From contig JANPLG010000182.1 in assembly GCA_031426395.1 (NCBI GenBank), forward strand, positions 6,984 to 70,983: 64,000 nt of DNA, given 5' to 3'. Positions 8,714 through 56,872 of the stretch are shown piece by piece (within the stretch, counting starts at the first letter, position 1; the number at the start of each line of letters is the position of its first letter). The position numbers and the translations under genes were made by a program. Origin of the DNA: Actinomycetes bacterium (GTDB taxonomy: Bacteria; Armatimonadota; SYMT01). The notes under the pieces were generated by a model. That model saw nothing but the letters and a program-made list of their open reading frames with translations, had not been told where the DNA came from and did no database searches.

Positions 8714-9643
8714 ATGCCCGAGCTACCCGATATCGAGCTGTACCTTCACGCGCTTGAGTCCCGGGTGGTCGGGCAGGCGCTGCGGGAGGTGCGGCCAGGC
8801 AACCCGTTCCTGCTGCGGACGGTCGACCCGCCCCTGCGCGAGGTCGCGGACCGCGTGGTAGTCGCAGTTAGCCGGATTGGGAAGCGGATCGTTATTGAGC
8901 TACAGGGGGAGCTACAAGGCGAGGTCTTCCTGGTCATCCACTTGATGATCGCGGGGCGTTTTCAGTGGAAAGTGGTCGGCGCCAAGCTCGGCAAGCCGCT
9001 CTGCACCTTTGTCTTTGACACAGGTACGCTCGTGCTCACGGAAGCGGGCTCCAAGCGGCGGGCCTCCCTGCATCTGGTGCGTGGACGCGCCGCGCTGGCG
9101 GCCTTCGACCGTGGCGGGCTGGAGGTACTGGACGCATCGCCCGAAGAGTTCGCTGCGGCACTTCGGCGCGAGAACCACACGCTGAAGCGGACGCTCACCG
9201 ATCCGCGGCTCTTCTCCGGCATCGGCAACGCCTACTCGGATGAGATCCTGCACCGCGCCCGGCTCTCGCCCTTCCTTCAGACGAAGCACCTGGACGAAGT
9301 GCGGACGGCGTGCCTCTACGCCGCCACGCGGGGCGTGCTGCGCGAATGGACCGAGCGCCTTCGCGGGGAGGTCGGCGACGGCTGGCCGGTTAAGGTGACC
9401 GCCTTCCGCCCGGAGATGGCGGTCCATGGCCGCTACGCCCAGCCCTGCCCCGTGTGCGGTAGCCCCGTGCAGCGGATTGTCTACGCGGAGAACGAGTGCA
9501 ACTACTGCGCCACCTGTCAGACCGGTGGCCGCGTCCTCGCCGACCGCGCCCTCTCCCGGCTGCTGGGAGAGGACTGGCCGCGTAACCTGGAGGAGCTGGA
9601 GGAACGGGGTATCCTGCCCCGGAAGGCGGCGGAGCGCGGTTGA
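8714..9643 (+). CDS. Fpg/Nei-family DNA glycosylase/AP lyase (formamidopyrimidine-DNA glycosylase or endonuclease VIII)
   Basis: N-terminal MPELPDIE with catalytic Pro2/Glu3, H2TH region and a C-terminal CxxC...CxxC zinc finger (CPVCGSP...CNYCATCQ). Confidence 0.8.
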   Translation: MPELPDIELYLHALESRVVGQALREVRPGNPFLLRTVDPPLREVADRVVVAVSRIGKRIVIELQGELQGEVFLVIHLMIAGRFQWKVVGAKLGKPLCTFVFDTGTLVLTEAGSKRRASLHLVRGRAALAAFDRGGLEVLDASPEEFAAALRRENHTLKRTLTDPRLFSGIGNAYSDEILHRARLSPFLQTKHLDEVRTACLYAATRGVLREWTERLRGEVGDGWPVKVTAFRPEMAVHGRYAQPCPVCGSPVQRIVYAENECNYCATCQTGGRVLADRALSRLLGEDWPRNLEELEERGILPRKAAERG

Positions 9644-17283: not shown

Positions 17284-17324
17284 CAATTTGCAATTCTCAA
17301 TTGACAATTGCAAATTGACAATTC
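17284..17324. promoter_or_regulatory. AT-rich element with CAATTG/TTGCAA palindromes and two TTGACA hexamers in the yeaH-spoVR spacer
   Basis: Direct read: caatttgcaattctcaattgacaattgcaaattgacaatt. It shares the 12-mer AATTGCAAATTG with the element upstream of asnS (26221-26266). Confidence 0.4.
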
Positions 17325-17371
17325 GGAGTCGGGCTTACTTTCCCCAGATCATCCACCCACCACTCACCAAG

Positions 17372-40600: not shown

Positions 40601-40942
40601 CACCAGGGTGCCGGGGAGTATGCCGAAGCGGAGCGGCTCTGCCGGGAGGGCCTGCGCCTCCAATGGAAGGCGCGGGACATGCAGCATATGTCCTACCTGC
40701 TGCGCGGGCTGGCGGATGCGGCGTTGGCCCTGGGCCGATTGGAGAATGCGGTGACCCTCCACGCTGCCACCGACCTGCTCCAGTCCGAGCTTGGCGGAGC
40801 GATGTCGACCGCTCCTCCGGTCGCCAGCAACCTGCGCGAGGAGGCCCGGAGCCGGCTGGGCGACCGCCGCTACGATGCGGCCACGGAGCGCGGGACCCGG
40901 ATGCCGATTGAAGAGGTGGTCCAACTCGCGCTTGAAGGGTAG
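37646..40942 (+). CDS. SARP/AfsR-like transcriptional regulator: OmpR-type winged-helix + BTAD + NB-ARC ATPase (LSGPGGVGKTRLA) + C-terminal TPR repeats; alternative GTG start at 37742
   Basis: IDLLGALRVV...LLAYLAHRLGRPQPREALIDLLWPD (wHTH), BTAD region (…GHYEEWVPSEAARLSELHL…LIRLL…), P-loop and GxP (LVVDNLEQL) of NB-ARC, several TPR-like repeats. Confidence 0.8.
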   Translation: MDRGTGEEFAENVAVVPIHFTSDHFTSDCPLAVTDPRCQIDLLGALRVVRGAESVTRFSTRKNAALLAYLAHRLGRPQPREALIDLLWPDADLELGRRSLRTALTSLRHQLEPPGVPQGSVLLADRATVALNPAVVTTDIRAFEAALASAKSASRIEEKRQRLSDALTHYGGTLLPGHYEEWVPSEAARLSELHLGALRELTGILEQCGDLSGALQHARQAVTVEPLREAPHGELIRLLIQSGQEPEARRQWAALGTLLREELGTVPSASLQKLVDGWLQSGPAPAPATLRTGLPPVSAAQAFPIDPGSAPPEMPPLPSEWTRFFGRVDELGRLRQWLAAAAVAESGERLVTLSGPGGVGKTRLALRLASALREEYGGRVVWVALADLSDPRLIPDALARALGLPPAQGDPLAQVAEFLGDGPCLLVVDNLEQLGAGAAPSVQSLLSRLPQSRILATSRTRLLLPGEREFPLTPLPVTPDGESTGEGELAQVAGLPSVQLFVDRAQAVRPDFQVTARNAGDLVRLATRLEGIPLALELAAARASVLTPAQMVERLEHRLEWLETRKADRPERHRSMRAAVEWSYELLGAGLRGLFRRLAVFRGGWSLGAAEAVAVDASLTAVLSPLDALAQLRASSLVQVDAPATSGAEPRFRMLESLREFALEQLSPEELTAAYQAHLGCFLDQAEEAAAAMDTPGQQEAMDLLESERDNLRAALAWSREAEPLLALRLAGALGRFWRVGGYQREGFEWLESVLATTEREATARELQSGDALRWKARALHGAGGIAFDRLDYPAAERYFNSAVSLWEALVEWEQAGMSRVGLAMMHYQLGDLQRSREQYEKLVPLVREGSDLSLRARVIGGLGQIAYILQDADPEPLYLEALACQQERGNVQGQGALYHALGNLFERNGDRLEARRHHELALACRKEARFRQGIIYSHFSLSALASGEGDFERARPHCEEGLRLAREIGDEWSIGMGLKWLASIHQGAGEYAEAERLCREGLRLQWKARDMQHMSYLLRGLADAALALGRLENAVTLHAATDLLQSELGGAMSTAPPVASNLREEARSRLGDRRYDAATERGTRMPIEEVVQLALEG
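37700..37725 (+). promoter_or_regulatory. Direct repeat CATTTCACTTC x2 (15-bp spacing) just upstream of the probable GTG start of the SARP regulator
   Basis: Direct read: catttcacttctgaccatttcacttc. Confidence 0.2.
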
Positions 40943-41103: not shown

Positions 41104-43023
41104 TCAGCGGGTCAAGGTGGCGTTGCGTGTGGTGGCACCGCCCGCCGTGACCACCACCTCGCCCACTTCCAGCGGGTTGTAGCCAGACTTGCTGAACTTC
41201 AGCCGGTATGTGCCGGCCGGCAGCTCACCAAGGAGGTACTCTCCACTAACGTTGGTGAAGACCGTCCGACCGGTCACGGGTCCAGCCAGGATCTCGACTT
41301 TCACCTCCGCGAGGGCATCCTCACCGGAGTTGCGCACGCGTCCGGTAATCCGCCCAAGGGACGGCTGCTCCACCGGCTGCAGGGTGACGTTCAACTCCCG
41401 CGCCTGGCCCGCGGTGAGCACAATCACCTCGGTATCAACCGAACGGTAGCCCTCGCGGGAGAAGCGGATGCGGTAGGAACCCGCCGTGAGTTCCTCGAGC
41501 GCGTAGTCGCCCTCGCCGTTGGCAAACGCCGACTTGAGCACCGGCCCCGCGATGATCGTCGCTCTGGCTTCCGCGATTCCCGCGCCCTGCGGGTTACGAA
41601 TCCGACCGAAGATCCGGCCCCGCGTCGGCTCCTCCGCGCGCAGAACGAAGTTGCGTTCCGTGACCCGGCCGGCGATCACCGTGGCTGCCGCCGTGGATGA
41701 GCGGAAGCCCGCCTTGCTGGCCGTCAGGGTGTGGCCCCCCGGCTCCAGCTCGTTAAGCTCGTAGCGGCCCTCCTCATTCGTGAGGGTTGACCGCCCTTCC
41801 TGGATGGCAACCGTGGCACCAGGGACTGCCGCCCCGCTCCCGTTGGTCACCCTGCCGACGATGCGGCCGAACTGCGAGCCTTCCGTTCGCAGGAGGAAGG
41901 AAACGGAGCGGTTCTGACCCGCCACCACCGGCGTTTCACGCGTTTGCGGAAGGTAGCCGTCCTTTGAGGCCCGGAGGGCGTAGTTTCCCGGAAGCAGCTC
42001 TTCCAGGCGGTAGCGTCCCTCGCCGTCGGTGACGGAACTTCGAATGGTTGGGCCAGCAATCACAGTAACAGTGGCACCAGCAATTGGCCGCCGGTCAGCA
42101 TCGGTGACGGTACCGGAGACGGTGCCGAAGCGAGGCTCCTCGCCGCGACGCACGGTGAAGTCGACGCGGCGCTCCTGGCCGGCTTCCACGCGGATGCCGC
42201 CCGCTTCCGCAGCCCGGTAGCCGTCTGCGGTCACCCGGAGCGAGTACAACCCTGGCACCAGGGGAGCGAGGGTGTACCTGCCCTCCGCGTCCGTGCCGAT
42301 CTCGGCGATGGTGGGACCGGCGGTGATCCTGACTGTAGCACCGGAGACTGGCTGGCCCTCGCCATTCTTGACGACACCGAAGATGGCGCCGACCGGGTCC
42401 TCACCGAGCGAATCCAGCTCCACCCGGATCTCAACGACTCTTCCGGCTCGCACTTCCAGCCCCTCCCGAATCCGGGTAGCGTGCCCCGCCGTGCTGAAGG
42501 TGAGAGCATAGACTCCAGGCCGAAGCCCGCGGAGCTCGAAACGTCCCTCCCGGCCGGAGGTCGCCCGCCCGTCCGAGGGTCCACTCAGAATCTCAATGCG
42601 CGCTCCGACAATCGCTCGGCCACCGGCTCCCCGCACGGAACCGACGATGGCACCCGTATCCGGGACCCGTTCCGGCACCAGCGCGAAGTCGACTCGCGTG
42701 GTCTCTCCCTCAGCCACGGTCAGCGGTCCCTGCTCAGCAACGCGATGGCGCGGTGCCTGCACCCGGAGGCCGTAGCCGGTGCCGGTCGGGACTTTCTCAA
42801 AGAGGTAGGTCCCATCCTCGCGCGATTGGACCGTTCGGGCGCGGTCTCCTTTGGAAAGGCGAACCGATGCGCCCGGAATCGCCTTGCCGGCGGTGTCTCG
42901 AATGGTGCCGGCCACACTGCCGGTGCCTGGCCCGCTCTCGGCGCGCGCGGGCGCGGGGGAAGCAAGGGAGATGAGGGAGAGCGCCATGAGCGCCATGGAA
43001 CGGATGAAAGAGCGTCGCATACG
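41104..43023 (-). CDS. Secreted protein composed of about 7 tandem carboxypeptidase-regulatory-like (CarboxypepD_reg/Cna-B-like) beta-sandwich domains
   Basis: Signal peptide. Repeated ~85-aa units (GxVxD..G.PIxGAxVxL…TDxEGRYxLxxLxPGxYxLxxSKxGY…). Confidence 0.7.
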   Translation of the reverse strand, partial: RMRRSFIRSMALMALSLISLASPAPARAESGPGTGSVAGTIRDTAGKAIPGASVRLSKGDRARTVQSREDGTYLFEKVPTGTGYGLRVQAPRHRVAEQGPLTVAEGETTRVDFALVPERVPDTGAIVGSVRGAGGRAIVGARIEILSGPSDGRATSGREGRFELRGLRPGVYALTFSTAGHATRIREGLEVRAGRVVEIRVELDSLGEDPVGAIFGVVKNGEGQPVSGATVRITAGPTIAEIGTDAEGRYTLAPLVPGLYSLRVTADGYRAAEAGGIRVEAGQERRVDFTVRRGEEPRFGTVSGTVTDADRRPIAGATVTVIAGPTIRSSVTDGEGRYRLEELLPGNYALRASKDGYLPQTRETPVVAGQNRSVSFLLRTEGSQFGRIVGRVTNGSGAAVPGATVAIQEGRSTLTNEEGRYELNELEPGGHTLTASKAGFRSSTAAATVIAGRVTERNFVLRAEEPTRGRIFGRIRNPQGAGIAEARATIIAGPVLKSAFANGEGDYALEELTAGSYRIRFSREGYRSVDTEVIVLTAGQARELNVTLQPVEQPSLGRITGRVRNSGEDALAEVKVEILAGPVTGRTVFTNVSGEYLLGELPAGTYRLKFSKSGYNPLEVGEVVVTAGGATTRNATLTR

Positions 43024-43281
43024 CCTAACTCCATATCGGATCAACGTAGGAAGAGGAGTCGTGCTGATTTCGTGAGCGAGCTTCTGGTTGCTCGCTAAAC
43101 CGTAGACGGTAAGACTTCTTAGGGTGTTCCGAAAACTTTGGGCTGGGGCAGCCTGCTAACGGCTCTCTTCCACGGAGGGGCGCGCAGAAGGTGGCATACC
43201 GCTGTGGCGTAAAGTTTCGTTGACGGATTGAACTTCCTCACGATAGGCTTCCACCAACGCTTTGCAGGACAAAGTAGACTT

Positions 43282-46988: not shown

Positions 46989-47921
46989 TCAGTGGCCGCC
47001 GGGAGCGTTCCCGCGCGCCACACCGATGATCTCCCGCACGTCTGCAATGCCCTCGCAGCGCAGCCATTCCTCAAGGCCATCGATCACTTCCGGGATGGCG
47101 GTGGGATTGAAGAAGTTGGCCGTGCCGACCTGGACGGCGGTTGCGCCTGCCATCAGGAACTCCACGGCGTCCCGCCAGTTGGTGATCCCGCCGATGCCGA
47201 TCACCGGGATGCTCACGGCGCCCGCCACCTCGTAGACCATGCGGAGGGCCACCGGCTTCACGGCTGGCCCGCTCAGACCGCCGGTCCGGTTCCCGAGGAG
47301 CGGCCGGCGGTGGTCGATGTCGATCGCCATTCCCACCAGCGTGTTGATCAGGCAGATGGCATCCGCGCCGCCCGCCTGCGCCGCCCGCGCCAGGGCGACC
47401 ACGTCCGTGGTATTGGGGGAGAGCTTGGGGATCAGGGGCAGCCGGCAGACCGCCCGGCAGGCCGCCACCGTCTCCTCCACCGCCTGCGGCACCACGCAGA
47501 ACTCCGCCCCGCCCCGGCCCACGTTGGGGCAGGAGAGGTTAAGCTCGATGGCGGTGACGCCCTCCGCCGCTGCCAGCGCGGCGCATGTGTGGGCGTACTC
47601 CTGAATGGAGTTGGCGGAGACGTTCACGAAGATCGGGACACCCAGCTCGCGAATGCGCGGCAGTATGCCTTCCAGGAACCCCTCCAGGCCCGGATTCTGT
47701 AGTCCGATGGCGTTCAGCATCCCGCCCGGCGTCTCCGCGATCCGCTGGTAAGGATTGCCGGGACGAGGCCGTGGGGTGACCGCTTTCCCTACGAGCGCGC
47801 CCAGGCGGCGAAGGTCCCAGAAGCGCGCGTACTCCTCGCCCCAGCCGAAGCAGCCGGAAGCGGACATCACCGGGTTCTTCAAGGGAATGCCGGCAATCTC
47901 AACCGCAAGGGATGGGGTCAT
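46989..47921 (-). CDS. pyrD: Dihydroorotate dehydrogenase (class 1 catalytic subunit); start set at MTPSLAVEIAG
   Basis: FMN-binding TIM barrel with the active-site Cys (LSCPNV) and typical blocks (…NPVMSASGCFG…, …IPVIGIGGI…). Confidence 0.85.
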   Translation of the reverse strand: MTPSLAVEIAGIPLKNPVMSASGCFGWGEEYARFWDLRRLGALVGKAVTPRPRPGNPYQRIAETPGGMLNAIGLQNPGLEGFLEGILPRIRELGVPIFVNVSANSIQEYAHTCAALAAAEGVTAIELNLSCPNVGRGGAEFCVVPQAVEETVAACRAVCRLPLIPKLSPNTTDVVALARAAQAGGADAICLINTLVGMAIDIDHRRPLLGNRTGGLSGPAVKPVALRMVYEVAGAVSIPVIGIGGITNWRDAVEFLMAGATAVQVGTANFFNPTAIPEVIDGLEEWLRCEGIADVREIIGVARGNAPGGH

Positions 47922-48088
47922 CAACAAGGGCGAAGGGGCTGGATGAGGGGTCGCTGAGTGCAAGGGAAGGTCCGTGGGTCGCGCCGGGGATCAGGGCAGT
48001 TTTAGCCGGTTCTGGCCGAAGTGGCTCAGTTGTTGCTCACGCCGCCTTCGTCTCGAACCGGGTGTGGGCGCCACCTTCCGGAATCGCG

Positions 48089-49306
48089 TCACTCCGGCTC
48101 GTGATCTCTGAAGCGCCTACGAATCACCACCGCCGCCCGAAGGTGACCGAGATCCATGGTTCGACTCATCAAGCTCTTTAGGCGATGGATGAGCCGCGAG
48201 CCCCTGCCCTGGCGCTTCGGCAAGGCGAAATCACCTTCTGACTGCCCGTCTTGCACTTCGGCAACCTGGGCGGAAGGAACTGCTGGAAAGAGAAGCCGGA
48301 GAAGATCTCGCGGCCCGCTGGCACTCAGGCTTTCGATCAGCCCGTCAGGCCGATCGTAAGATGACCATTCCACTGCATAGCGGGCAAGATCCGCGATCGG
48401 AAGGCGGTGCTTCCGAATCGGAGCCGTGGCGGCGGAAGGCAGCGAGACGAGCCCTAGATGCTCCACGACACCCAGCATCACCGCCAGATCAGCCGCAGCG
48501 TTCGCCCCCTCGGCTCTAGCCCAGGCGACGTCCCAATCAAGGGTCGGATGAGCAGACAGCAGGGCCGCGACGTCCAGGTAGCTCCGCAGCGGGACCATCA
48601 GCTGATGACGGGCAGTGTGCACGGCCAGGATCAAGAGGTGGTCTTCAGCACTAGGCACCCGGAACTTTCTAGCACTACCATCCAGCGGCGCGACGGATCG
48701 CTCCAGGATTCCGGGCACGTCCATCTTGACCCCTGCTGCTGCCGGAGCGAGATCCCAGTGAAGTTCCACCAGAATGCTGTCCTTGCGAGCGAACGACCAG
48801 TGGTAATGGTTCTCAAGCAGATACTCGCGGCTATGCCCCAAGCAATCGCTCTGCCACTCATACCCAAGGCTCTCGAGCGCTTTGCAACCAGCATCCCTGT
48901 TCGAGGGGTGGACCAGAACGTCCAGGTCACCAAATCGACGCATTCCTCGGTAAGGATACTCGTGGAAAGCAAGCGCTCCACCCTTGACCACCACCGCGCG
49001 GATTCCGCACTCCTCAAGGGCTGAGCCAAGCTCCACCAGTTGGTTGAGAGCGTTGTCGGCCCGGAGTTCCCCAATGCGAGACTGCTGCCTCAAATGGCTG
49101 GAAGCCACCGGATCACATTCGAGGAATCCTGCTCGTCGGCCGTGATCGAGAAGGCTGGCGAGCCCGTGGAGCTCGATCGACGCGAAATCCGAGGGTGTCA
49201 GACCGAGTGGCTGCAACCCCGTTGAAGCTTCGGCGCGAACCACGCTGGCGAGGCGAGGCAGAACAGGTCGGAGCCGCTCCACGAGCGACTGGTCAATGGC
49301 TGGCAT
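48089..49306 (-). CDS. Nucleotidyltransferase-family protein (NTP_transf_5-like, 'uncharacterised nucleotidyltransferase'); last gene of the putative peptide-modification cluster
   Basis: 405 aa. NTase-fold motif RFGDLDVLVHPSNRD (hG[GS]…D.D). Translationally close (22 nt) to the upstream peptidase gene. Confidence 0.65.
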   Translation of the reverse strand: MPAIDQSLVERLRPVLPRLASVVRAEASTGLQPLGLTPSDFASIELHGLASLLDHGRRAGFLECDPVASSHLRQQSRIGELRADNALNQLVELGSALEECGIRAVVVKGGALAFHEYPYRGMRRFGDLDVLVHPSNRDAGCKALESLGYEWQSDCLGHSREYLLENHYHWSFARKDSILVELHWDLAPAAAGVKMDVPGILERSVAPLDGSARKFRVPSAEDHLLILAVHTARHQLMVPLRSYLDVAALLSAHPTLDWDVAWARAEGANAAADLAVMLGVVEHLGLVSLPSAATAPIRKHRLPIADLARYAVEWSSYDRPDGLIESLSASGPRDLLRLLFPAVPSAQVAEVQDGQSEGDFALPKRQGRGSRLIHRLKSLMSRTMDLGHLRAAVVIRRRFRDHEPE

Positions 49307-49328
49307 CGAATGGCGGCCCTTTCAGAGG

Positions 49329-49730
49329 TCAGGTGAGAAGGGAACGCACTCGCCTGTGAAGCGCCCACCAAGAGAAGCGCAGTCGCATCAGGATCGTCGG
49401 CTTAGCCACGTGAGAGACGACGCCCACCAGCGATTCCCACGGAAAAGGCGGGTCCGGATGCGGGTTGGCGTCCCCCTGGCAGTGGATAGTGGCAGGCTTG
49501 CCTTCTGCGTCCAGTTCAATCCGCGTGAGGCGGTGGACGATCAGGCGGGAGCCGGAGAGGTAGGCGACTGGCGCACCTTCCCTGGCCAGTTCGGGATCGC
49601 ATCGGATGGTGACGGTGCTTCCCACCGGAATGAACGGGACCATGCTGCCGGTGCTCACCGTGACCCGCATCTCGTCGCGCGTGTCCATCATCAGGCGGCA
49701 GAACGCATCAAGATGGAGTGCGGAATCCAT
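49329..49730 (-). CDS. S24/S26-like (signal-peptidase/LexA-fold) peptidase; start set at MDSALHL (the longer ORF start would overlap the kinase by 82 nt)
   Basis: TGSMVPFIPVGSTV matches the SM(x)PT(L/I) nucleophile motif. The position of the general-base Lys reads …LIVHRLTRI…, which may be a His in place of Lys. Confidence 0.5.
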   Translation of the reverse strand: MDSALHLDAFCRLMMDTRDEMRVTVSTGSMVPFIPVGSTVTIRCDPELAREGAPVAYLSGSRLIVHRLTRIELDAEGKPATIHCQGDANPHPDPPFPWESLVGVVSHVAKPTILMRLRFSWWALHRRVRSLLT

Positions 49731-49756
49731 TGTAGAAAGTAGTGGTCGACTCACCG

Positions 49757-50752
49757 TCAATGAGACCGCACCGCCAGAGCCCCGACCTTCCGCAGCACCA
49801 ATCGGGCAGTATCCACCGGTTCTCCAGAGGTCAAGCAAAAGCTGGGGAAGCGATCAGCGACACGAGCACACAGGTCAATCTGCTCGACGAAGCTGAGCTT
49901 GCCGCAGACCGTCGGCGAAAGCCTCCGAAGGGTTTCGCTTGCTGTCAGTGGCACCATGCTGGCTGCTTGCGCGAATCCCTGCATGAAGATGAAGACTGCC
50001 GATTTCGTTGGAAGTGGCCGGTCAGGAGAGTCAACCGCAGCAATGAGCTTCCGCTCTCCAGGACGGACCTGCACCCAGTTGTCTGGGGGAGCGTCCGCAC
50101 CAAGAAGCGCAACCCCTCCTTCACGGAGAAGTGGCGGTCGACAGATTGGCACCAGTTCAAGGCTGTCTCGCCTCAGGAAGAGGGAGTCGTCGCCAAAGTA
50201 AACAGCGCCTTCCCGATGCAAGGCCGATGCAAGTGTGGACTTCCCGGAGCGGCTCGGTCCCAAAAGAACGAGGGCCACATCGCCAACTGCCAAGGTGGCC
50301 GCGTGGAGAAGAACAACGGGAAGCAGGTCCAGAGTTAGGCTTGCCAGGCATCTGGCGAGATAGTTGCCCCACTGAAACTCGTCCGTGAAAACAAAAGTCT
50401 CCGCTTGCGTGTGGAAGATTGTCTCTACTGATTCACCGACTGCTGCTCCGGAATCAACCCACTGGACGGTGCCTGAGGAACTAGGGGGGCGTGGAGTCAC
50501 GCTGCTCCACATTGGATTGTCCATCAGGAGAGAGACCGACACACTCATACCGGCAACCATCAGGCGAAAAGAGCGATGCCCTTCTTCGTCACGGCCGATT
50601 TGGACTTCACACGACGGGCAATCCTGCTCCCCATCGTCGTCAATGCGCCATCCCTTTGGCATCGCGCGGCCGATGTACTGCTCGAAGTCACGGCTAGACT
50701 CAAAAACCAGGAGGACGTGGATGGGACCGAAAGCAATGCGGTGAGTGTGCAA
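49757..50752 (-). CDS. HprK-related P-loop kinase (HPr kinase C-terminal-domain-like); apparent TTG start
   Basis: LLHAATLAVGDVALVLLGPSRSGKSTLASALHREGAVYFGDDSLFL aligns with the HprK core (…G..vli.G.SG.GKS.lAl.L…G..lv.DD). Confidence 0.7.
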   Translation of the reverse strand: MHTHRIAFGPIHVLLVFESSRDFEQYIGRAMPKGWRIDDDGEQDCPSCEVQIGRDEEGHRSFRLMVAGMSVSVSLLMDNPMWSSVTPRPPSSSGTVQWVDSGAAVGESVETIFHTQAETFVFTDEFQWGNYLARCLASLTLDLLPVVLLHAATLAVGDVALVLLGPSRSGKSTLASALHREGAVYFGDDSLFLRRDSLELVPICRPPLLREGGVALLGADAPPDNWVQVRPGERKLIAAVDSPDRPLPTKSAVFIFMQGFAQAASMVPLTASETLRRLSPTVCGKLSFVEQIDLCARVADRFPSFCLTSGEPVDTARLVLRKVGALAVRSH

Positions 50753-50887
50753 AGCGGTGTGCCTGGAACGGACACGTTGGGGCGGGCCGCAGGGATCGGC
50801 GGTCTGCGAACACCCGAACGGAAGCGGCTTCGAACCACGGACTTGCTTTGCCCCGGGTCTAGGAAACCACGATTCGGCTTGAGCGCC

Positions 50888-50930
50888 AAAAAGCGGGGGA
50901 AGACTAGTTCGAGCCAGTCTCCCCCCGCCC
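50888..50930 (-). terminator. Hairpin + U-tract terminator/attenuator immediately after the small peptide ORF (minus strand)
   Basis: Minus-strand read: GCGGGGGGA-gactggctcgaactagtc-TCCCCCGC-TTTTTGG. It lies 11 nt after the peptide stop and about 135 nt before the kinase start. Confidence 0.6.
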
Positions 50931-50940
50931 TGTCAGCTAC

Positions 50941-51039
50941 CTAGGGCACCTGCCCTGTAGGAACGGCCACTGCCTCCACCGACGTGGTGAGCTCCGCTTC
51001 GGTGCTGGTGGTGACTTCAGGCTTCTCGTAAGTTCCCAT
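50941..51039 (-). CDS. Candidate precursor peptide (32 aa): MGTYEKPEVTTSTEAELTTSVEAVAVPTGQVP
   Basis: ATG preceded by AGAGAAAGG. Rich in Thr, Ser, Glu and Val. Positioned as the first gene of the kinase/peptidase/NTase cluster and followed by a terminator hairpin. Below the ORF-track size cut-off. Confidence 0.4.
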   Translation of the reverse strand: MGTYEKPEVTTSTEAELTTSVEAVAVPTGQVP

Positions 51040-51103
51040 GCTGCTTGCCTTTCTCTAATGGGGGCTGGCCCTTACCCATTATGCCGCCCGCTTGCTGCGT
51101 GTG

Positions 51104-51137
51104 CTACCAGGATCAGAATTCACCCTGATCCTGGTAG
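51104..51137. promoter_or_regulatory. Perfect 13-bp inverted repeat (CTACCAGGATCAG-aattcacc-CTGATCCTGGTAG) between the DUF11 gene stop and the peptide ORF; candidate operator, with a CATAAT -10-like hexamer downstream
   Basis: Direct read. The stem is perfectly palindromic, with no U-tract on either strand. Confidence 0.4.
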
Positions 51138-51147
51138 CGCGGATTCG

Positions 51148-53940
51148 CTAGAAGCCTTCGCCCTCGGGGTGGATTCGGAAGGTGTAGACATCCTGACAAG
51201 CATTGCGGTACTCGCCCACCGCGTTGTAGGCATAGGCCCCGCGGACCATCTGGAAGTCCGCCCTTACGCGCGCCATCCATCCGGCCGGGTAGGTGTTGGC
51301 GGCCGGCGCAGGATCACCGGTGCTGGCGATGTCCACGGGAGGAAGGACCGTGAAGGTGCCAACCTGCTGAGTGGCGCCGTTCTGGTTGAGCGAGATGTAG
51401 TTCAGCTTGTGGTTGAATGCTGTTCCAGGCCCGTCGAACGGCTGCAAGAACACCACCGAGGTGTCGAACGGCCTTCTGATGATGTTGTCACCGTCGTTGT
51501 AGCCCTGTTCCACCGCAACCTGATTGACGAACGTACAGGAGTTCCAGTTCACGTCCGAAACGAACGCAGAGGTGAGGTAGACCCAGATCTCGCGTCCGGG
51601 GCCAAAGGTCCCCAGCTCGGGTCGATAGGGGATCTGCCCTACGAACTTGAAGGTCTTGCCTGCGCTGCCGAACCGGAAGGCCGGGTTCGCCAGATCGGCG
51701 GCGGTCATGGTTGCGCCGCCTACGTTCAAGTTGGAGTAGGATGCGGCATCCGAGAAGTAGGCCTCGCCGCAGAGCATCTCGACAGCGCGGTAGGCCACCG
51801 GCAGCGGGGAGACGGGGATGTCACCCAGGTTCTGGTCCGGGCCAACCGTGAAGGCACCCGTGGTGGTGATGATCCGGTTGGCGGCGGTGATCCGCACCCG
51901 GTAGCTGCCTGCGCCCACGCCGGTGAATGAGAAGTTGCCCGTGACGAGGTCAGAGGTCACCGAGGCGACCACCAGGCCGGTGCCGGCATCCAGCAGCTCC
52001 ACCAGCTTGCCCTTGAGGGGACCGCCCGGAGCGTCGAACAGGCTCACCAGGGTGGGCTCGTTGTAGGCGCTCGGGGGTCCGCAGATGGGGCGGCCGGTGA
52101 TGGCGTAGGTGGGGACGTCCGCGCGAAGGAACAGGGTAGCGTCAACTTCGGCGGTGCAGCCGTAGCCCGCGATGCCGCTGATCAGTCCCAGGAAGTTGAA
52201 CGTCGTGCCGGCTGGCGTGGATGTCGGAACCGTGAACTGAGCGGAGAAGCTCTTAACCCCGGAGCCAACGGCAACATCACCGATCTGAAGGGTCTCGGAA
52301 CCAAGTCCGCCATCGCCCGCAAGCACCAGGATCACGCTGCGGAGGTCCGCATCGCCATTGTTCTGGTACGTGCCGTGGACGGTGAAGGTCTGGCCGGGCA
52401 GCAGGGTGCCGGTGATGGGGGTAAGGCGAAGATCGAGCGAAGGGCTGATCACCTGCAGGTTGCCGTTGCCAGAAGCGGCAACCGGTCCGCCAGACACAGC
52501 TTCCGTGCCGGAAACCGGCAGCGTCACGATGCCCGTGTTGTTCGGGCCATTCACCTTGACCGTCACCGAAACGTAAGCGTTGGGGGCCAGGGAAGTGGTG
52601 CTCAGTGCGCCGACCACGAAGCTTCCGGCACCCGTGGTGCTGGTAGGGGTCCCCGCCACCAGACCGTTCACCGTGGCTTCACCGGTGTTGGTGATGGTGA
52701 AGGTGAGGGTGGGAGAGCCGCCCGGCTTGGTGCAGACGTTGCTGCCCACAACGGCGAGGCCGGTGGTCAGCGAATCCGTGGTGGTGGTGGCCTGCGCGGT
52801 GATGTTTGCGCAGCCGCAGGCTTCCTTGGCCGTGCCGGTCAGGATGATGCTGCCATCCGAGCCGGTTCCGGTGTAGCTAACCACTACCTGGGCGGTCTCG
52901 TCGGGGGCGAGGGCGGTCTTGGTGGGAGCGCCGACCGTTGCCGTTCCGCCCGTAGCGCTGACCTGGAGCGCGAGGTTGGTGACCGCGACATCGCCACTGT
53001 TGGTGATGGTGTAGGTGACCTGCTTGGTGCCGCCCGTGGCAATGCTGATGGAGGCCGGGCCACTCACCAAAAGGCTCGGATGGGAAACCGTGGTGGTGAT
53101 CCCGCCGCTCACCGTCTTCACCGGGATGCTTCCGCCGAGCACCGCATCACCCCAGGTAGCGGTGACGCTGTTGACCTTGGTTGCCGATGCAGTGGTCACC
53201 GTGGTCGTGCGGGTGGCGGTGATGCAGGTGTTAGCCGCGATGGTGGCTGGCGTGGAGACGACACCGAAGGAGTCGGTGAGCACCACGTTGACCGCGCCGG
53301 TCTGGCCCGTGTTGCAGAGCTTGTAGGTATAGGTGATGGTCGAGCCGCTCACCACGCAGACGCGGTCCGCCATCACTTCCAGGGTGAGGCGTGCGGGGGC
53401 AGGAGTGGTGGTGCGGTCCGAGAAAAAGGTCTTGCCGCCGGGCCGAATCACGTGGAAGGTGAACTGCCACGCACTATCCGGGATGACTCGGTTGAAGGTC
53501 AGGGTGTGGAGCGTGGCCGGGAAGGATTCGCCCGGCTCCATGTTGGTATCGGGGATGCCGTTTGCGTTGTAATCCGGCCCGCCCTGGTAGTCCCACCATG
53601 AAGGATTGCCCGGCTTCGAGCTGCCGTTGGGGATGACGCTCATCGCGGTGGGCGAGACGCTTCCGCCGGTGGGGCCAACACCTACCAGCAGGCCCTTCAG
53701 GCCCGCAAGCGCGGGGGTGTTGCTGGGCACGGAGACCGCGAAGCCGTACTTGTACGTGCCGGCCGCTGAAGGAAGAAGGGTGGGGATGACGGTGGCGTAA
53801 CTGGACGCCGGCGGGTTGGTGATGTTGTTGCCGTACTGCGGGACCGCGTGCGCGGGCCTGGCGGCAAAAAGGGCGAAAGAGGAGACCGCCAGTGCCAGAT
53901 AGGCCGCTGGACGGGTTAACCGGGTCCACATTGCTGACAT
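51148..53940 (-). CDS. Large secreted protein with DUF11/CARDB-like conserved repeat domains (Thr/Gly-rich beta-sandwich repeats); start set at MSAMWTRL with an AAAGGA RBS
   Basis: Signal peptide (…AAYLALAVSSFALFAARPAHA). Repeated …VTYTITNSGDVAVTNLAL…, …TLTFTITNTGEATVNGL… motifs typical of DUF11. Confidence 0.7.
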   Translation of the reverse strand: MSAMWTRLTRPAAYLALAVSSFALFAARPAHAVPQYGNNITNPPASSYATVIPTLLPSAAGTYKYGFAVSVPSNTPALAGLKGLLVGVGPTGGSVSPTAMSVIPNGSSKPGNPSWWDYQGGPDYNANGIPDTNMEPGESFPATLHTLTFNRVIPDSAWQFTFHVIRPGGKTFFSDRTTTPAPARLTLEVMADRVCVVSGSTITYTYKLCNTGQTGAVNVVLTDSFGVVSTPATIAANTCITATRTTTVTTASATKVNSVTATWGDAVLGGSIPVKTVSGGITTTVSHPSLLVSGPASISIATGGTKQVTYTITNSGDVAVTNLALQVSATGGTATVGAPTKTALAPDETAQVVVSYTGTGSDGSIILTGTAKEACGCANITAQATTTTDSLTTGLAVVGSNVCTKPGGSPTLTFTITNTGEATVNGLVAGTPTSTTGAGSFVVGALSTTSLAPNAYVSVTVKVNGPNNTGIVTLPVSGTEAVSGGPVAASGNGNLQVISPSLDLRLTPITGTLLPGQTFTVHGTYQNNGDADLRSVILVLAGDGGLGSETLQIGDVAVGSGVKSFSAQFTVPTSTPAGTTFNFLGLISGIAGYGCTAEVDATLFLRADVPTYAITGRPICGPPSAYNEPTLVSLFDAPGGPLKGKLVELLDAGTGLVVASVTSDLVTGNFSFTGVGAGSYRVRITAANRIITTTGAFTVGPDQNLGDIPVSPLPVAYRAVEMLCGEAYFSDAASYSNLNVGGATMTAADLANPAFRFGSAGKTFKFVGQIPYRPELGTFGPGREIWVYLTSAFVSDVNWNSCTFVNQVAVEQGYNDGDNIIRRPFDTSVVFLQPFDGPGTAFNHKLNYISLNQNGATQQVGTFTVLPPVDIASTGDPAPAANTYPAGWMARVRADFQMVRGAYAYNAVGEYRNACQDVYTFRIHPEGEGF

Positions 53941-54622
53941 TCCTTTCCGCGGCTGGGGACCGCGGGTTTCTTGGTGCCGGGATTGGTTCCCAGTCGACCG
54001 GGCGTTTCGTGGGATGGAGCAGCGTTTGATCCGCCGGTAAGCGGGTGTCTGCTCGAGGCCACCTTCGATTTGCCGCTTGCCAAATCGGTGTGCACGCCAG
54101 GATGTCACGAAGCCCCCGTTTGGTCAACCTTCGATGGAGGTCGGGCTAGCTGCAGATCATCCTGTTGTCGGAGTTTGAACTGGGCGAAGGATGGATAAAG
54201 CTAAGCCCCCGCCGCAGTCCATTCTCGCCGACTTTCTTAGATAACGGTACGAAGCACCTAGCCAAGTACTATCGAGGGCAGGAGTGCCTCTGATGCCGCC
54301 CTCGCAGGGTCCGGGCCAACCGATCGGATTCCTGGCCACCCGGATACCTCTGGACATGGTGAAGGGCTCGCTTCCGGTTAGAAGGCGAAGCCTTGATTCA
54401 ATCGAGGAAGCGGGGGTGGTCAGAACTCTCGCCAGCCGCGAAGCTGGAACAGGCGGGGCATGGGGGATCAGACTTCATTCGCAATGGATGGGAGAGAACT
54501 AGATCAGCCACCCAGATTGCGGGGCAGGGAACTCCGACTTGCAACGTGAACGAACGTCCAAGAACCGGGTGGCTGACGGTTCCCGCTCTGACTCACGGCT
54601 CTCCACAGAGTGAGGTGACGGT

Positions 54623-56872
54623 ATGCGTAGACTCGTCCGGCTGGCCCTCGTCCTTCTTGGCCTCGCGGCGCCTTTGCTGGGCAGCAGCCAGCCCACCATC
54701 GCCGCCCGCGCCCGGCCGCGAATCTCGCCAAGGGCGGTGGAGACGCAGTGGGTGGTCCGCTTCCGCCCCACCCTCACGCAGAGCGCCCGCACCATGCTGC
54801 ACCAGCGGGCGCGGGCGCGGGTGCTTGGAGTGATTCCGCAGCTTGGCACGCAGACGGTCCAGCTCCCCTCCGCCGAAGCCGCCCGGATCTACGCTGCCAG
54901 CCCAGACGTGCTCTACGTCGAGCCGAATCGCCTCCGCAAGCTGCTCCTCGCCCCGCCCAACGATCCCGCCTACAACGAGCTGGACACCCTGACTCCCCTC
55001 GATCCGGACCAGGCCACCTGGTACGAATGGGACGCCCGGACCATCCAGCTCGCTGAGGCCTGGGAGCGCTTTCCGAACCGGTACTACACCGCCTCGGGCG
55101 GGAAGGGGTCGGACAAGGTGCGCATCGCTGTGGTCGATACGGGCATCGACTACACGCACCCTGACTTTGCCAACGCCGGGGGCAACTCGACTAACAGCGC
55201 GCAGGGCGGGCAGCTCGCCCGATCGCTCGACCGCACCCTCCTCAATGGAGCGGTAACGCCGGACGCGGTGGACGACTACGGCCATGGAACCCACGTCACC
55301 GGAATCGCGGCGGCGGCGACGAACAATGGGCGGGGAGTCACCGGCAACGGCTACAACGCGGAGGTGGTCTCGCTCAAGACCGTCGATGCCGCCGACAACG
55401 GCACCTCGGACGACATCGCGCGGGCGATTGTCTACGCCGCCGACAACGGCTGCCTCATCGTCAACCTCTCCCTGGGTCTGTACGAGTACTCCCAGGTGGA
55501 GCAGGACGCTGTGAACTACGCCTGGAACAAGGGCACCCTTTGCATCGCGGCCGCCGGTAACGATGGCGTGGACAACAAGCCGCTCTACCCCGCTGCGCTG
55601 GACAAGGTGCTGGCGGTCTCAGCCACCTCGGCGCAGGATGCCCTGACCACTTATTCCACCTACGGGGCGAACGTGGGCGTCGCCGCTCCCGGCGGGGATT
55701 TCGATTTCAACGCGATGTGGTTCGTCTGGATCTACAGCACGATGCCGACCTACTACGTCACGCTGAACGATCCCAGCGTCTTTGGCGCGGAGATGAACTA
55801 TTCCTACCTCCAGGGCACGTCGATGGCGTGCCCGCAGGTAGCAGGCGTTGCCGCCCTGTATGCCGGCAAGATGGGATACACGCAGGCGACACCCAATGTC
55901 TGCCTCAAGATCTGGCAGGCCCTGCAACGGGGCGCGGACGACATTGCGGGCACATCCAACGGCGGCTGGACCCCCTACTACGGCTTTGGCCGCCTGAACG
56001 CCTTCCAAGTTCTCACCCTGGACGAGAACCCGAACCCGCGCGAGGCAACGGTCGGCTGCATCACGGGCCAAGTGCGGTACCGCGGCACGCGCGTCCCAAA
56101 CGCGGTGATCACCGCCGTTCCCGAGGTCGGCGGCGCAGGCGGTGAGGGGAACTCGCGCGCGGATGGCGGGTATCGCATCGCCAACGTCCGAGCCGGAACC
56201 TACACGGTCTCGGCCAGCGTCTTCGGAGAGGAGCAGACGGTGGCGGGCGTCGAGGTGACGGCGGGCTGCGATGTTCCGGGCATCGTCTTCAACATCGGCG
56301 GAGGGGGCGGCGGCAATCCGCCTCCGGTGCCCGACGGCCTCGGCGCGGTAGGACGCTCCGCCTCGCGCATCGACGTGAGCTGGGATGACGTGACCGGCGA
56401 AACCGGCTACCGCCTGGAACGTCGCACCAGCACGGGCACCTGGAGCCTCGCCGCGAACCTCGCCGCCAACACCGCCCAGTTCACCGATACGGGCCTGGCC
56501 CGGATGACCGAGTACTGGTACCGCATCCGCGCCAACAACTCGCATGGTGCCTCCGCGGACTCCAGCGAGGTCAGCGCCTGGACCCTGGATATCCGCCCCA
56601 CTGCACCCAACCGCCTGAGGGCCGTCGCCACCTCCGGCACCCAGGTGAACCTCACCTGGCGGGACCGGAGCAGCAACGAGACGGGCTTCCGGATCGAGCG
56701 CAAGGGTCCGCGAGGGGGCTATGGCAGCCTGGCCACCACGGAGGCCAACGCCATCTCCTTCAGCGACACCACCACCCAACCGAAGAGCCGCTACACCTAC
56801 CGGCTCCGGGCGTACAACAGCGCGGGCAACTCAGCCCCCGTGGAGGCCACCGTCACCACCCGTGCCCGGTGA
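54623..56872 (+). CDS. Secreted subtilisin-like serine protease (S8) with C-terminal carboxypeptidase-regulatory-like and fibronectin-III-like domains
   Basis: Catalytic triad blocks VVDTGIDYTHPDF, HGTHVTGIAAA, GTSMACPQVAGVAALY. Signal peptide. GAGGTG RBS. Confidence 0.85.
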   Translation: MRRLVRLALVLLGLAAPLLGSSQPTIAARARPRISPRAVETQWVVRFRPTLTQSARTMLHQRARARVLGVIPQLGTQTVQLPSAEAARIYAASPDVLYVEPNRLRKLLLAPPNDPAYNELDTLTPLDPDQATWYEWDARTIQLAEAWERFPNRYYTASGGKGSDKVRIAVVDTGIDYTHPDFANAGGNSTNSAQGGQLARSLDRTLLNGAVTPDAVDDYGHGTHVTGIAAAATNNGRGVTGNGYNAEVVSLKTVDAADNGTSDDIARAIVYAADNGCLIVNLSLGLYEYSQVEQDAVNYAWNKGTLCIAAAGNDGVDNKPLYPAALDKVLAVSATSAQDALTTYSTYGANVGVAAPGGDFDFNAMWFVWIYSTMPTYYVTLNDPSVFGAEMNYSYLQGTSMACPQVAGVAALYAGKMGYTQATPNVCLKIWQALQRGADDIAGTSNGGWTPYYGFGRLNAFQVLTLDENPNPREATVGCITGQVRYRGTRVPNAVITAVPEVGGAGGEGNSRADGGYRIANVRAGTYTVSASVFGEEQTVAGVEVTAGCDVPGIVFNIGGGGGGNPPPVPDGLGAVGRSASRIDVSWDDVTGETGYRLERRTSTGTWSLAANLAANTAQFTDTGLARMTEYWYRIRANNSHGASADSSEVSAWTLDIRPTAPNRLRAVATSGTQVNLTWRDRSSNETGFRIERKGPRGGYGSLATTEANAISFSDTTTQPKSRYTYRLRAYNSAGNSAPVEATVTTRAR

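Follow-up and report, generated by a model that had tools for sequence, protein, structure and literature searches.

The first description of linear polyphosphorylated peptides (LPPs) appeared in May 2026 (Popov et al., Nat Commun 2026, PMC13381572). In Paenibacillus alginolyticus, the LPP cluster lppA-K-B-S-D-N encodes the precursor LppA, the kinase LppK, the recognition protein LppB, the peptidase LppS, the exporter LppD, and the nucleotidyltransferase LppN, and the core gene set of the family comprises SpI, RRE, HprK kinase, NTP transferase, and MsbA (PMC13381572). LppK polyphosphorylates Ser3 of the core, after which the leader is removed by the SpI-like LppS; Thr in the target position was not a substrate of LppK, in vitro cleavage of LppA by LppS required LppB, mutation of the LppS residues Ser29, H68, and D93 abolishes cleavage, and LppN had no detectable effect (PMC13381572). 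LPP precursors carry the motif YxxPxVLxHQxIxFETxxS followed by a variable C-terminus, and their clusters are located in capsule loci and stated to be restricted to Bacillota (PMC13381572).

Similar steps occur in phosphorylated lasso peptides such as paeninodin (PadeK) and pseudomycoidin (PsmK/PsmN), in which an HprK-superfamily kinase acts on a precursor whose [Y/W]xxP-type leader is read by a PqqD-like RRE, and in which fusion of the nucleotidyltransferase to the leader peptidase is also known. In pseudomycoidin, phosphorylation by PsmK is followed by hexose addition to the phosphate, for which PsmN, the one relative of the window nucleotidyltransferase with a characterised role, is required (PMC6993621). 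HprK-like and PqqD-like proteins are likewise paired in the HPr-rel-A system (TIGR04352 and TIGR04353, the PqqD family peptide chaperone) and in SynChlorMet (ScmC/ScmD), both uncharacterised.

The window, i.e., the whole 64-kb stretch of DNA analyzed here, contains a minus-strand gene cassette that, judging from its sequence, is quite likely to be a RiPP pathway for a small peptide, homologous to the LPP pathway. Its features are as follows.

48089-49306, minus strand: NTP_transf_5 nucleotidyltransferase (LppN/PsmN-type), 405 aa
49329-49730, minus strand: soluble S26B-type (SipW/Sec11-like) serine peptidase (LppS-like), 133 aa in the reading that starts at ATG
49757-50752, minus strand: HprK/PEPCK-fold P-loop kinase (LppK-like), 331 aa, TTG start
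50888-50930, minus strand: intrinsic-terminator-like hairpin with T5 run, immediately 3' of the peptide stop codon
50941-51039, minus strand: precursor peptide gene (LppA-like), 32 codons, translation MGTYEKPEVTTSTEAELTTSVEAVAVPTGQVP
51048-51055, minus strand: ribosome-binding site GAGAAAGG, 8 nt upstream of the peptide ATG
51078-51083, minus strand: CATAAT hexamer, 39 nt 5' of the peptide ATG
51103-51138, no strand assigned: perfect inverted repeat of 14 bp with an 8-nt loop (arms 51103-51116 and 51125-51138, 100% complementary)
51148-54108, minus strand: large secreted protein, 986 aa, with Ig-like/DUF11 and CarboxypepD_reg-like domains (weak Pfam matches)

A sequence-only reading had described the 32-aa ORF with its ribosome-binding site, the hairpin, the kinase, the peptidase, and the nucleotidyltransferase, and all of them are present at these positions. 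Its statement that no product is known for such neighborhoods is outdated by the publication of the LPP family, which is more recent than most databases (PMC13381572).

Like LPP clusters, the cassette has a small precursor whose N-terminal leader is of the YxxPxV type and whose C-terminus is variable and rich in Gly/Pro/Asn, an HprK-like kinase adjoining the peptidase together with an NTP transferase and no macrolactam cyclase, and an archaeal-type, SipW-like soluble peptidase that begins with a helix and contains the triad Ser29/His/Asp93. On the other hand, the hosts of window-type loci are not Bacillota, gene orders differ, peptidase::NTase and peptidase::PqqD fusions occur, and the frequent upstream neighbor is a large secreted protein rather than a capsule locus. 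Unlike lasso clusters, the window has neither a lasso cyclase (C) nor a B2 cysteine protease, and a serine peptidase would remove the leader. The Asn-synthetase-like macrolactam cyclase and the transglutaminase-like B2 protease are absent from the genes flanking the cassette and from the related loci, and in the window core, no G/A/S/C start is followed by Asp/Glu at positions 7-9. No PqqD or radical-SAM gene was found either, in agreement with the sequence-only reading, which had set the locus apart from canonical lasso, sacti-, and thiopeptide clusters. Radical-SAM partners are also what distinguishes SynChlorMet/HPr-rel-A from the present family, and an S26-type peptidase or a window-type precursor does not define those systems.

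Precursor peptide gene and regulatory elements

By sequence comparison, the small ORF, for which NCBI and Logan records already contain a gene call, is a conserved gene. Orthologues of 32-45 codons are present in loci L004, L005, L010, L011, L014, and L022 and share the motif Y-x-x-P-x-[VLIM]-[TS]-[TS]-x-T-E-x-E-L, behind which comes a tail of variable sequence rich in Gly and Pro. Among seven independent loci with kinase or peptidase homologues, the motif ORF accompanies the kinase in every one with upstream DNA included (6/6). These six precursor loci were reached via the kinase or peptidase and never via the peptide itself, and one additional locus was recovered by searching with the DNA motif, which matches once in the window (0 expected). 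Third positions vary in 20 of 20 motif codons (first positions in 12, second positions in 9), which indicates selection on the small ORF at the protein level.

The N-terminal part of the peptide is predicted by homology to be a leader with a YxxPxV recognition motif. Its Y-[EK]-K-P-E-V stretch is common to LppA sequences (e.g., VYKKPEVLNHQ...), whereas the second half of the leader reads TTxTExEL here and LxHQxIxFET in LppA. Compared with the LPP motif, the YxxPx[VLIM] half, the invariant Leu at the F(-3) position, and the variable C-terminus are present, but TTxTExEL..(V/I)E stands where LPP precursors have HQxI, FET, and Ser3. The leader/core boundary would fall somewhere between residues 19 and 25, and alignment with LppA predicts a cut after Thr19, giving the core SVEAVAVPTGQVP. 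Ser20 and Thr28 are the only hydroxyl residues past this site. The Ser3 acceptor of LppA, which is not conserved in the window family, aligns with Glu22, and none of the Ser positions is common to all family members; a C-terminal Ser of the lasso-kinase type occurs in one of eight family peptides (L004). Family precursors are 32-45 aa long with predicted cores of ~7-16 residues (~7-13 in the window), compared with 35-200 aa for LPP precursors and a 45-aa core in LppA.

Strong AAGGAGGTGA-like ribosome-binding sites at equal spacing precede the five orthologous small ORFs examined. The hairpin downstream of the peptide gene has a 17-bp stem and a 6-nt loop (50891-50930) followed by TTTTT, with a folding energy of -43.7 kcal/mol (z = -4.2; 0/200 shuffles as stable), and was not picked up by a simple terminator scan. 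Similar hairpins with T-runs lie downstream of the small ORF in L005, L010, and L014, and the peptide stop codon is located 10-20 nt upstream of the hairpin. The hairpin probably acts as an attenuator that yields a high precursor-to-enzyme ratio. Upstream, the inverted repeat, which had been counted as a 13-bp palindrome and in fact has 14-bp arms, begins 10 nt past the stop of the upstream gene and might serve as an operator or as a terminator-like hairpin that lacks a T-run. The previously noted CATAAT hexamer does lie upstream of the peptide and is a possible -10 element, although a consensus scan of 47900-51400 called no sigma-70-type promoter.

Kinase, peptidase, and nucleotidyltransferase

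The true start of the kinase gene is the TTG at 50752, and public gene calls, which begin at the ATG at 50662, are wrong, since the 30 residues gained in this way match homologues in alignment and are modelled with confidence. The AlphaFold model (pLDDT 90) retrieved exclusively ATP-PEPCK and HprK/P structures in Foldseek, and the Walker A sequence is GPSRSGKST, with H150, K171, and D188 invariant across the subfamily. Among curated models, TIGR04352 and TIGR04353 score best for the kinase and for the RREs of related loci. The resemblance to HprK-related/PqqD neighborhoods noted earlier is real, although the scores are far under the cut-offs (28-40 bits vs. 200 for kinases, 21-33 vs. 35 for RREs). 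The window kinase itself matches TIGR04352 (HprK_rel_A) with an E-value of 2e-10 and 40 bits, and Hpr_kinase_C only weakly, far under the curated cut-off; some family kinases also have precomputed weak ScmC matches. The protein is HprK-like by family profile and modelled fold and a probable counterpart of LppK. A canonical HprK/P of the PTS was considered and rejected, as TIGR00679 (hpr-ser) scored 14.5 bits against a cut-off of 240 and PTS genes are absent from the window flanks. Nor do the kinase homologues cluster with HPr/PTS genes in the related loci; the lone PTS-linked match, L008 (Paracoccus), is an unrelated short HprK.

The ORF of the peptidase begins mechanically further upstream, at 49838. 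Assignment to the S24/S26-type peptidases agrees with a TIGR02228 match (E-value 7e-10, under the cut-off) and with a structural model (pLDDT 93) that matches LexA, UmuD, SipA, SEC11, and SpsB, i.e., clan SF. The candidate catalytic residues S29, H66, and D93 are invariant in 32 homologues, and the GDAN motif (box E) is present. In an hhalign comparison of the family profile with LppS (97.9% probability, E-value 4e-13), these residues fall on LppS S29, H68, and D93. SipW/Sec11 signal peptidase I (S26B) has the same fold, Ser-His(-Asp) arrangement, and motifs (SM, HR, and GDxN), and the window peptidase differs from it by its short length of 133 aa, the coupling of its gene to a kinase gene, and a likely substrate that would be a leader peptide in the cytoplasm, not a Sec signal peptide. 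It has neither a membrane anchor nor a signal peptide and is therefore considered cytoplasmic. The LCELW motif of the subfamily occurs in 0 of 199 peptidases of the LPP dataset (PMC13381572).

The nucleotidyltransferase matches PF14907 (4e-43), the family to which it had been assigned. It is 30% identical over 376 aa (E-value 1e-40) to the NTase half of the peptidase::NTase fusion of L014 and is also related to the NTase of L022. No NTase was found in the 17 kb that make up L011.

Related loci and the upstream secreted protein

The related loci derive from soil and peat metagenomes. One of them lies in a 3.96-Mb genome with a gene type known mainly from Planctomycetota. In L004, L007, L010, L011, and L022, the reading frames of kinase and peptidase have 4-16 nt in common. 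A peptidase::NTP_transf_5 fusion occurs in L014/L016-L021 and a peptidase::PqqD fusion in P0198, which tie the peptidase, nucleotidyltransferase, and recognition protein together. A PqqD-type recognition protein is encoded in six of seven related loci (L004, L007, L010, L011, L014, and L022), and in L005/L006 the kinase directly follows the peptide with no PqqD in between. A tblastn search with five family RREs detected no PqqD/RRE in the whole 64-kb window, and profile comparison detected no RRE-like domain in the window kinase or NTase. An MsbA-like exporter (ABC transporter) is absent from the genes flanking the cassette and from the gene tables of the related loci.

The large protein encoded upstream of the peptide has a conserved C-terminal module of ~300 aa, and its true start is likely the internal MSAMWTRL..., which opens a signal-peptide-like stretch ending in AHA. 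Homologues are located directly 5' of the small ORF in L010 and L011/L012 (28-38% identity, E-values 3e-35 to 5e-41), and a 46-aa C-terminal remnant adjoins an IS66 transposase gene in L005. Accordingly, the protein is found upstream in four of seven independent loci (the window, L010, L011, and the remnant in L005), and in L010 only ~38 nt separate its stop from the peptide start. L004, L014, and L022 do not encode it and have other enzymes nearby (P450, unknown enzymes). The 986-aa gene probably belongs to the same transcription unit as the peptide gene.

Proposed pathway and alternative explanations

The analysis establishes the gene identities, folds, and conserved catalytic residues, the conserved precursor, and the linkage of the genes with its fusions; the chemical steps, cleavage site, and acceptor residue of the window pathway are assigned by homology to characterised systems. 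The peptide gene, probably co-transcribed with the secreted-protein gene, would yield an excess of the 32-aa precursor from its own ribosome-binding site and the attenuating terminator. With the N-terminal part (Y4-x-x-P7-x-V9 ... E16-L17) serving as leader, the HprK-like kinase may transfer at least one phosphate from ATP to a C-terminal hydroxyl, for which Ser20 and Thr28 are candidates; Ser is the likelier acceptor, given that LppK did not accept Thr in the target position. The Ser/His/Asp peptidase would then cut the leader after L17-T18-T19, which align with F-3, E-2, and T-1 of LppA, and release a 13-residue phosphopeptide, or one of 7-9 residues if cleavage takes place at VEA or AVA, nearby sites with small residues. 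Finally, the nucleotidyltransferase may decorate the phosphate further, similar to the PsmN-dependent hexose addition in pseudomycoidin. The order of Ser/Thr phosphorylation and leader removal suggested by the sequence-only reading matches the experiments on the homologous LPP system (PMC13381572).

Several observations run against an LPP-like reading. The RRE is missing from the window even though LppS needed LppB in vitro, no exporter was found, Ser3 is replaced, and the kinase and peptidase score under all curated cut-offs. The cassette could be a decaying or incomplete copy, derived from an LPP-like pathway, in which the recognition protein and any exporter are gone and no processed product is made any more. 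This would account for the absence of a PqqD gene that six of seven related loci retain and on whose counterpart LppS cleavage depends in vitro (PMC13381572), and the IS66 transposase gene beside the truncated remnant in L005 indicates that such loci get disrupted. However, the four ORFs are intact with all invariant catalytic residues, the ribosome-binding site and terminator are preserved, and L005/L006 likewise lack PqqD between peptide and kinase; moreover, the window is part of a genome, and the RRE may lie elsewhere. We consider a decayed copy unlikely.

Alternatively, no free natural product may be made, and the peptide, kinase, and peptidase may act on or with the upstream secreted protein, for instance when it matures, is anchored, or is regulated, or within the cell envelope or a biofilm matrix. 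The recurrence of this gene immediately upstream, the gap as short as 38 nt, and the lack of an exporter in any locus are in keeping with such a role, as are two further facts: biofilm matrix proteins are processed by SipW, to which the peptidase is most closely related among housekeeping enzymes, and LPP clusters reside in capsule loci. Yet three loci do without the large protein, no YxxP leader was seen in it, and the peptidase is cytoplasmic, which makes this role quite unlikely as a replacement for LPP-like peptide chemistry, with which it is also compatible. It is highly improbable that the small ORF is merely a cis-regulatory leader peptide governing the hairpin/T-run attenuator before the kinase-peptidase-NTase operon. 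The ORF is rich in Thr codons and directly followed by a terminator-like hairpin, as such a leader would be, but the conserved residues include the non-Thr residues Y, P, E, E, and L with all third positions free to vary, the motif is of the RRE-binding YxxPx[VLI] type and co-occurs with PqqD proteins, and the stop lies before the hairpin and not inside an alternative-pairing region.

Implications for the LPP family

While the LPP pathway in Bacillota is known, the sequences compared here point to divergent, fusion-bearing LPP relatives with minimal precursors outside Bacillota as the new element. We tentatively propose, at slightly less than even confidence, that they form an unrecognised non-Bacillota LPP branch making linear peptides of ~7-13 residues that are phosphorylated and possibly phosphoglycosylated, with some members, among them the window cassette, working without a cluster RRE or exporter, and that the branch is genetically coupled to a large secreted Ig-like/CarboxypepD_reg protein. 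Given such a branch, the RiPP toolkit of a kinase and a signal-peptidase-like module would be older and more mobile than thought. In public records, the cassette genes are mis-called or unannotated, with a wrong kinase start and sub-threshold family matches for kinase and peptidase. The window family offers much simpler substrates (a 32-aa precursor with Ser20 and Thr28) for studying the kinase, peptidase, and nucleotidyltransferase. The linked surface protein provides a concrete lead on function, and the coupling to it, if true, is a hint of a function at the cell surface or in a matrix and not of an antibiotic one.

Organization of the Cassette and Its Putative Precursor Gene

The sequence-only reading had proposed a RiPP-like peptide-modification cluster in which a small ORF, a hairpin with T-run, and genes for a kinase, a peptidase, and a nucleotidyltransferase (NTase) follow in series on the minus strand, and all of these elements were confirmed.

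Features of the cassette in the window
51103-51138: perfect palindrome, 14 bp, upstream of the small ORF
8 nt ahead of the ATG, minus strand: ribosome-binding site of the small ORF, GAGAAAGG
50941-51039, minus strand: small ORF, 32 codons, reads MGTYEKPEVTTSTEAELTTSVEAVAVPTGQVP
Between the small ORF and the kinase ORF, minus strand: hairpin, 17 bp with a 6-nt loop, then TTTTT
49757-50752, minus strand: kinase ORF, 331 codons from a TTG start
49329-49730, minus strand: peptidase ORF, 133 codons
48089-49306, minus strand: NTase ORF, 405 codons

The palindrome had been read as 13 bp and is one base pair longer, and the CATAAT hexamer described with it is present upstream of the small ORF; a consensus scan called no sigma-70-type promoter near the cassette. 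Folding of the window hairpin gave –43.7 kcal/mol (z = –4.2), and 0 of 200 shuffles were as stable. One flank of the cassette carries pyrD and ispH, and the other has genes for a secreted repeat protein (986 aa) and for an S8 subtilase. The cassette and flanking genes include neither a transporter nor a radical-SAM gene, and no gene for a lasso cyclase or B2 protease, which agrees with the earlier view that this is not a canonical lasso, sacti-, or thiopeptide cluster. A lasso-peptide reading was rejected: cyclase and B2 are missing, and no Asp/Glu acceptor is correctly spaced.

Looking up the genomic positions of kinase and peptidase homologues led to related loci, and a related small ORF was present in all six whose DNA includes the upstream part, as expected if the short ORF is conserved beside the kinase. 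One further locus (L014, the same population as L016-L021) was obtained with a DNA motif built from the related small ORFs.

Small peptides of the related loci
L004: MTYEKPEVTTYTEEELSAAVEAQGAGHGGGPLS
L005/L006: MINYETPSLSTYTEAELAASIEAVGPSDGVGGPPP
L010: MAIYEKPCVTTYTESELAASVSAHGLSVVVPDPG
L011-L013: ..LLSYDKPSVTTYTEAELAASIESLGASGAGGGP
L022, two copies: MTMYVAPSMTSYTEAELMAQMEAWGVSG...
L014, via the DNA motif in the JGI metagenome collection: ..AAYEKPAITTYTEAELLEAVEVWGLPGISGGSGPY

The motif matched once in the window, against 0 matches expected. A scan of metagenome contigs returned two contigs, a count that understates abundance because the pattern is too strict: the later-found L022 peptides (YVAPSM..) escape it. 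Ribosome-binding sites resembling AAGGAGGTGA precede five of the six small ORFs examined, and a strong hairpin with T-run follows four of them. The third position varies in every one of the 20 codons of the motif, compared to 12 first and 9 second positions, and pairwise differences comprise 123 synonymous and 102 non-synonymous changes. Both NCBI and Logan annotate the window ORF as a gene. The alignment of the small peptides matched nothing among PDB sequences. Judged from these sequence patterns, the small ORF is a conserved coding gene.

Kinase, Peptidase, and Nucleotidyltransferase

A word-index protein search with the window kinase returned only itself and one weak match, and the subfamily emerged only from an exhaustive HMMER search, which gave ~34 representative homologues (E < 1e-10; full-length 325-335 aa; 30-40% identity). 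His150, the Walker A residues G170-K171-(S)-T173, and Asp188 are invariant in their alignment. The AlphaFold model has high confidence (pLDDT 90.2, pTM 0.89) and matches nothing in the PDB other than ATP-dependent PEP carboxykinases and HprK/P. Public calls (NCBI, Logan) start the kinase at an ATG at 50662 (301 aa). The 30 residues absent from this call align with the homologues, and this alignment, together with the confident fold of residues 1-30, indicates a start at the TTG at 50752 (331 aa).

Profile checks suggested by the sequence-only reading were clear for the NTase, a PF14907 member (4e-43), and fell under the curated cut-offs for the kinase (TIGR04352 HprK_rel_A, 40 bits vs. 200) and the peptidase (TIGR02228 archaeal-type signal peptidase, 38.9 bits vs. 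51.85). More distant kinase relatives (P0046, P0055, P0072, and similar) are in many cases 380-400 aa long and carry the HprK-like domain in their second half. In at least P0046, a lasso-type PqqD domain lies at the N-terminus, which makes this protein a fusion of recognition protein (RRE) and kinase. All of them stay below the TIGR04352 cut-off, and HprK-like RiPP kinases are therefore largely uncatalogued. A genome-contig scan with an eight-sequence kinase pattern amounted to Walker A and was swamped by other P-loop proteins; it yielded an unrelated short HprK from Paracoccus, which adjoins PTS-Ntr genes, and a Streptomyces locus.

A profile search with the peptidase found 31 close homologues of 135-160 aa, which a gap separates from true signal peptidases. 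S29-M30, H66-R67, G86-D87, and D93 are invariant across the 32 sequences. The model (pLDDT 92.9) matches LexA, UmuD, lambda cI, SipA, human SEC11, and SpsB, and therefore has the clan SF fold, with no transmembrane segment evident in sequence or model. The annotated start differs between Logan (49691, 120 aa) and NCBI (49730, 133 aa).

In five loci, the coding regions of kinase and peptidase share 4-16 nt. The NTase was seen in the window, L014, and L022, and is fused to the peptidase in L014. Its neighborhood was rejected as a stand-alone diagnostic, since the NTase homologue P0005 sits within a polysaccharide locus. A PqqD-type recognition protein occurs in L004, L007, L010, L011, L014, and L022, and P0198 is a peptidase::PqqD fusion. 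None was found anywhere in the 64-kb window, as the sequence-only reading had stated for the cassette, and profile comparison ruled out an RRE domain hidden in the kinase or NTase. The RRE profile of the family lies at much the same distance from LppB, TbiB1, TfuB1, and PqqD.

Neighboring Genes and Other Features

Genes for a large secreted protein family (window 51148-54108, minus strand; L010 1-1563; L011 5768-7327; L005 1825-1965) lie repeatedly just upstream of the precursor gene. The proteins share a ~300-aa C-terminal module without Pfam assignment, in which PFDGPGTA.N, a PAG.MA.R motif, and a C-terminal C..F.F..HP(E/D) are conserved. The L005 copy is reduced to its final 46 codons and adjoins an IS66 transposase gene.

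L022 (5728-10456, in a 3.96-Mb genome) has two paralogous precursor genes, with cores WGVSGQQIISVG and WGVSGIGEAR; a cytochrome P450 adjoining its NTase suggests an extra cross-link or hydroxylation. Its PqqD gene, at 8753-9046, begins with TTG and is missing from the public gene call. In L014 (930-2965; also L016-L021), from a peat metagenome, two conserved genes (360 and 318 aa) without a Pfam match lie directly upstream of the precursor gene, and a further 44-aa ORF lies between precursor and PqqD; the extra genes may encode additional tailoring enzymes. A different HprK-like protein, P0002, is encoded within ~5 kb of an NTP_transf_5 gene in L002 (10001-19620), along with two B12-binding radical-SAM enzymes, a methyltransferase, and a GT2 glycosyltransferase. 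L002 is probably another uncharacterised RiPP-like cluster and was set apart from the cassette family as a distinct locus with B12-radical-SAM enzymes.

Elsewhere in the window, a 917-aa SpoVR-like protein (17288-20041, plus strand) has its SpoVR match split into two parts, also matches Intein_splicing (residues 332-694) and LAGLIDADG_3 (564-635), and appears to be interrupted by an intein with a LAGLIDADG homing endonuclease.

Further genes in the window
23153-24979, minus strand: ISL3 transposase
37646-40942, plus strand: SARP/AfsR-like regulator, 1098 aa (BTAD + AAA/NB-ARC + TPR)
41104-43044, minus strand: protein of seven CarboxypepD_reg repeats
54623-56872, plus strand: S8 subtilase with two fn3 domains and a fervidolysin-like prodomain; its gene and that of the large secreted protein are divergent

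Relationship to Linear Polyphosphorylated Peptides

A literature search on the YxxP leader motif led to the linear polyphosphorylated peptides (LPPs) described in, and stated to be restricted to, Bacillota (Popov et al., Nat Commun 2026, PMC13381572). Their core genes encode LppS, a SipW-like SpI peptidase; LppB, a discrete RRE; LppK, an HprK-like kinase; LppN, an NTP transferase; and LppD, an MsbA-like exporter. The LppA precursor motif is YxxPxVLxHQxIxFETxxS. LppK places several phosphates on core Ser3, and LppS cuts the leader after T-1, requiring LppB and preferring phosphorylated substrate; the LppS mutants S29A, H68A, and D93A are inactive, and LppN had no detectable effect (PMC13381572).

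Comparison of LppS (Supplementary Data, PMC13381572) with the peptidase profile of the cassette family gave 97.9% probability (E 4e-13, hhalign), and S29, H66, and D93 of the window peptidase align to LppS S29, H68, and D93. The window peptide shares Y-[EK]-K-P-E-V with LppA leaders such as VYKKPEVLNHQTIMFET|AQSWN.., and alignment on the Tyr places the invariant Leu17 of the cassette family on LppA F(-3) and Thr19 on T(-1).

The cassette family also differs from LPPs. The second half of the leader is unlike LppA, with Glu at the Ser3 acceptor position, and the predicted cores are much shorter than the 45 aa of LppA, with ~7-13 residues for the window peptide and at most ~16 for relatives. In four of seven independent loci (the window, L010, L011, and L005 with its IS66-associated remnant), the peptide gene directly follows a gene for a homologous large secreted protein. 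The LCELW motif of the peptidase subfamily occurs in 0 of the 199 peptidases in the LPP dataset. The paper also lists, but does not analyse, peptidases linked to an RRE in Acidobacteriota, Chloroflexota, and Myxococcota (PMC13381572). The main objections to an LPP-like reading are the RRE missing from the window and the exporter gene absent from every locus of the cassette family. The family's loci come from soil and peat metagenomes. In one of them, in a 3.96-Mb genome, an N_methyl/SBP_bac_10 gene lies nearby, a gene type known mainly from Planctomycetota.

In the best-supported reading, the small peptide is an LppA-like precursor, and the earlier proposal of Ser/Thr phosphorylation followed by leader removal is supported as an interpretation. 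The sequences and models establish what the genes encode, how they are linked, the enzyme folds, and the conservation of the catalytic residues and of the precursor; we infer the chemistry, acceptor residue, and cleavage site of the cassette from homology to the LPP system. The kinase would phosphorylate a hydroxyl residue on the C-terminal side of the leader, leader removal by the peptidase would follow, and the NTase may further decorate the phosphate; in pseudomycoidin, hexose addition to the phosphate requires the NTase PsmN (PMC6993621). An LppA-based cut after Thr19 would free SVEAVAVPTGQVP, possibly phosphorylated, and other candidate fragments start at V24 or V26. Cleavage after VEA or AVA, following the generic signal-peptidase -3/-1 rule, was given less weight because LppS cuts after F-E-T, against that rule. 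The cassette is a divergent, non-Bacillota variant of the recently described LPP family of RiPPs rather than a categorically new one, and it falls outside the stated range of that family, with several distinct features.
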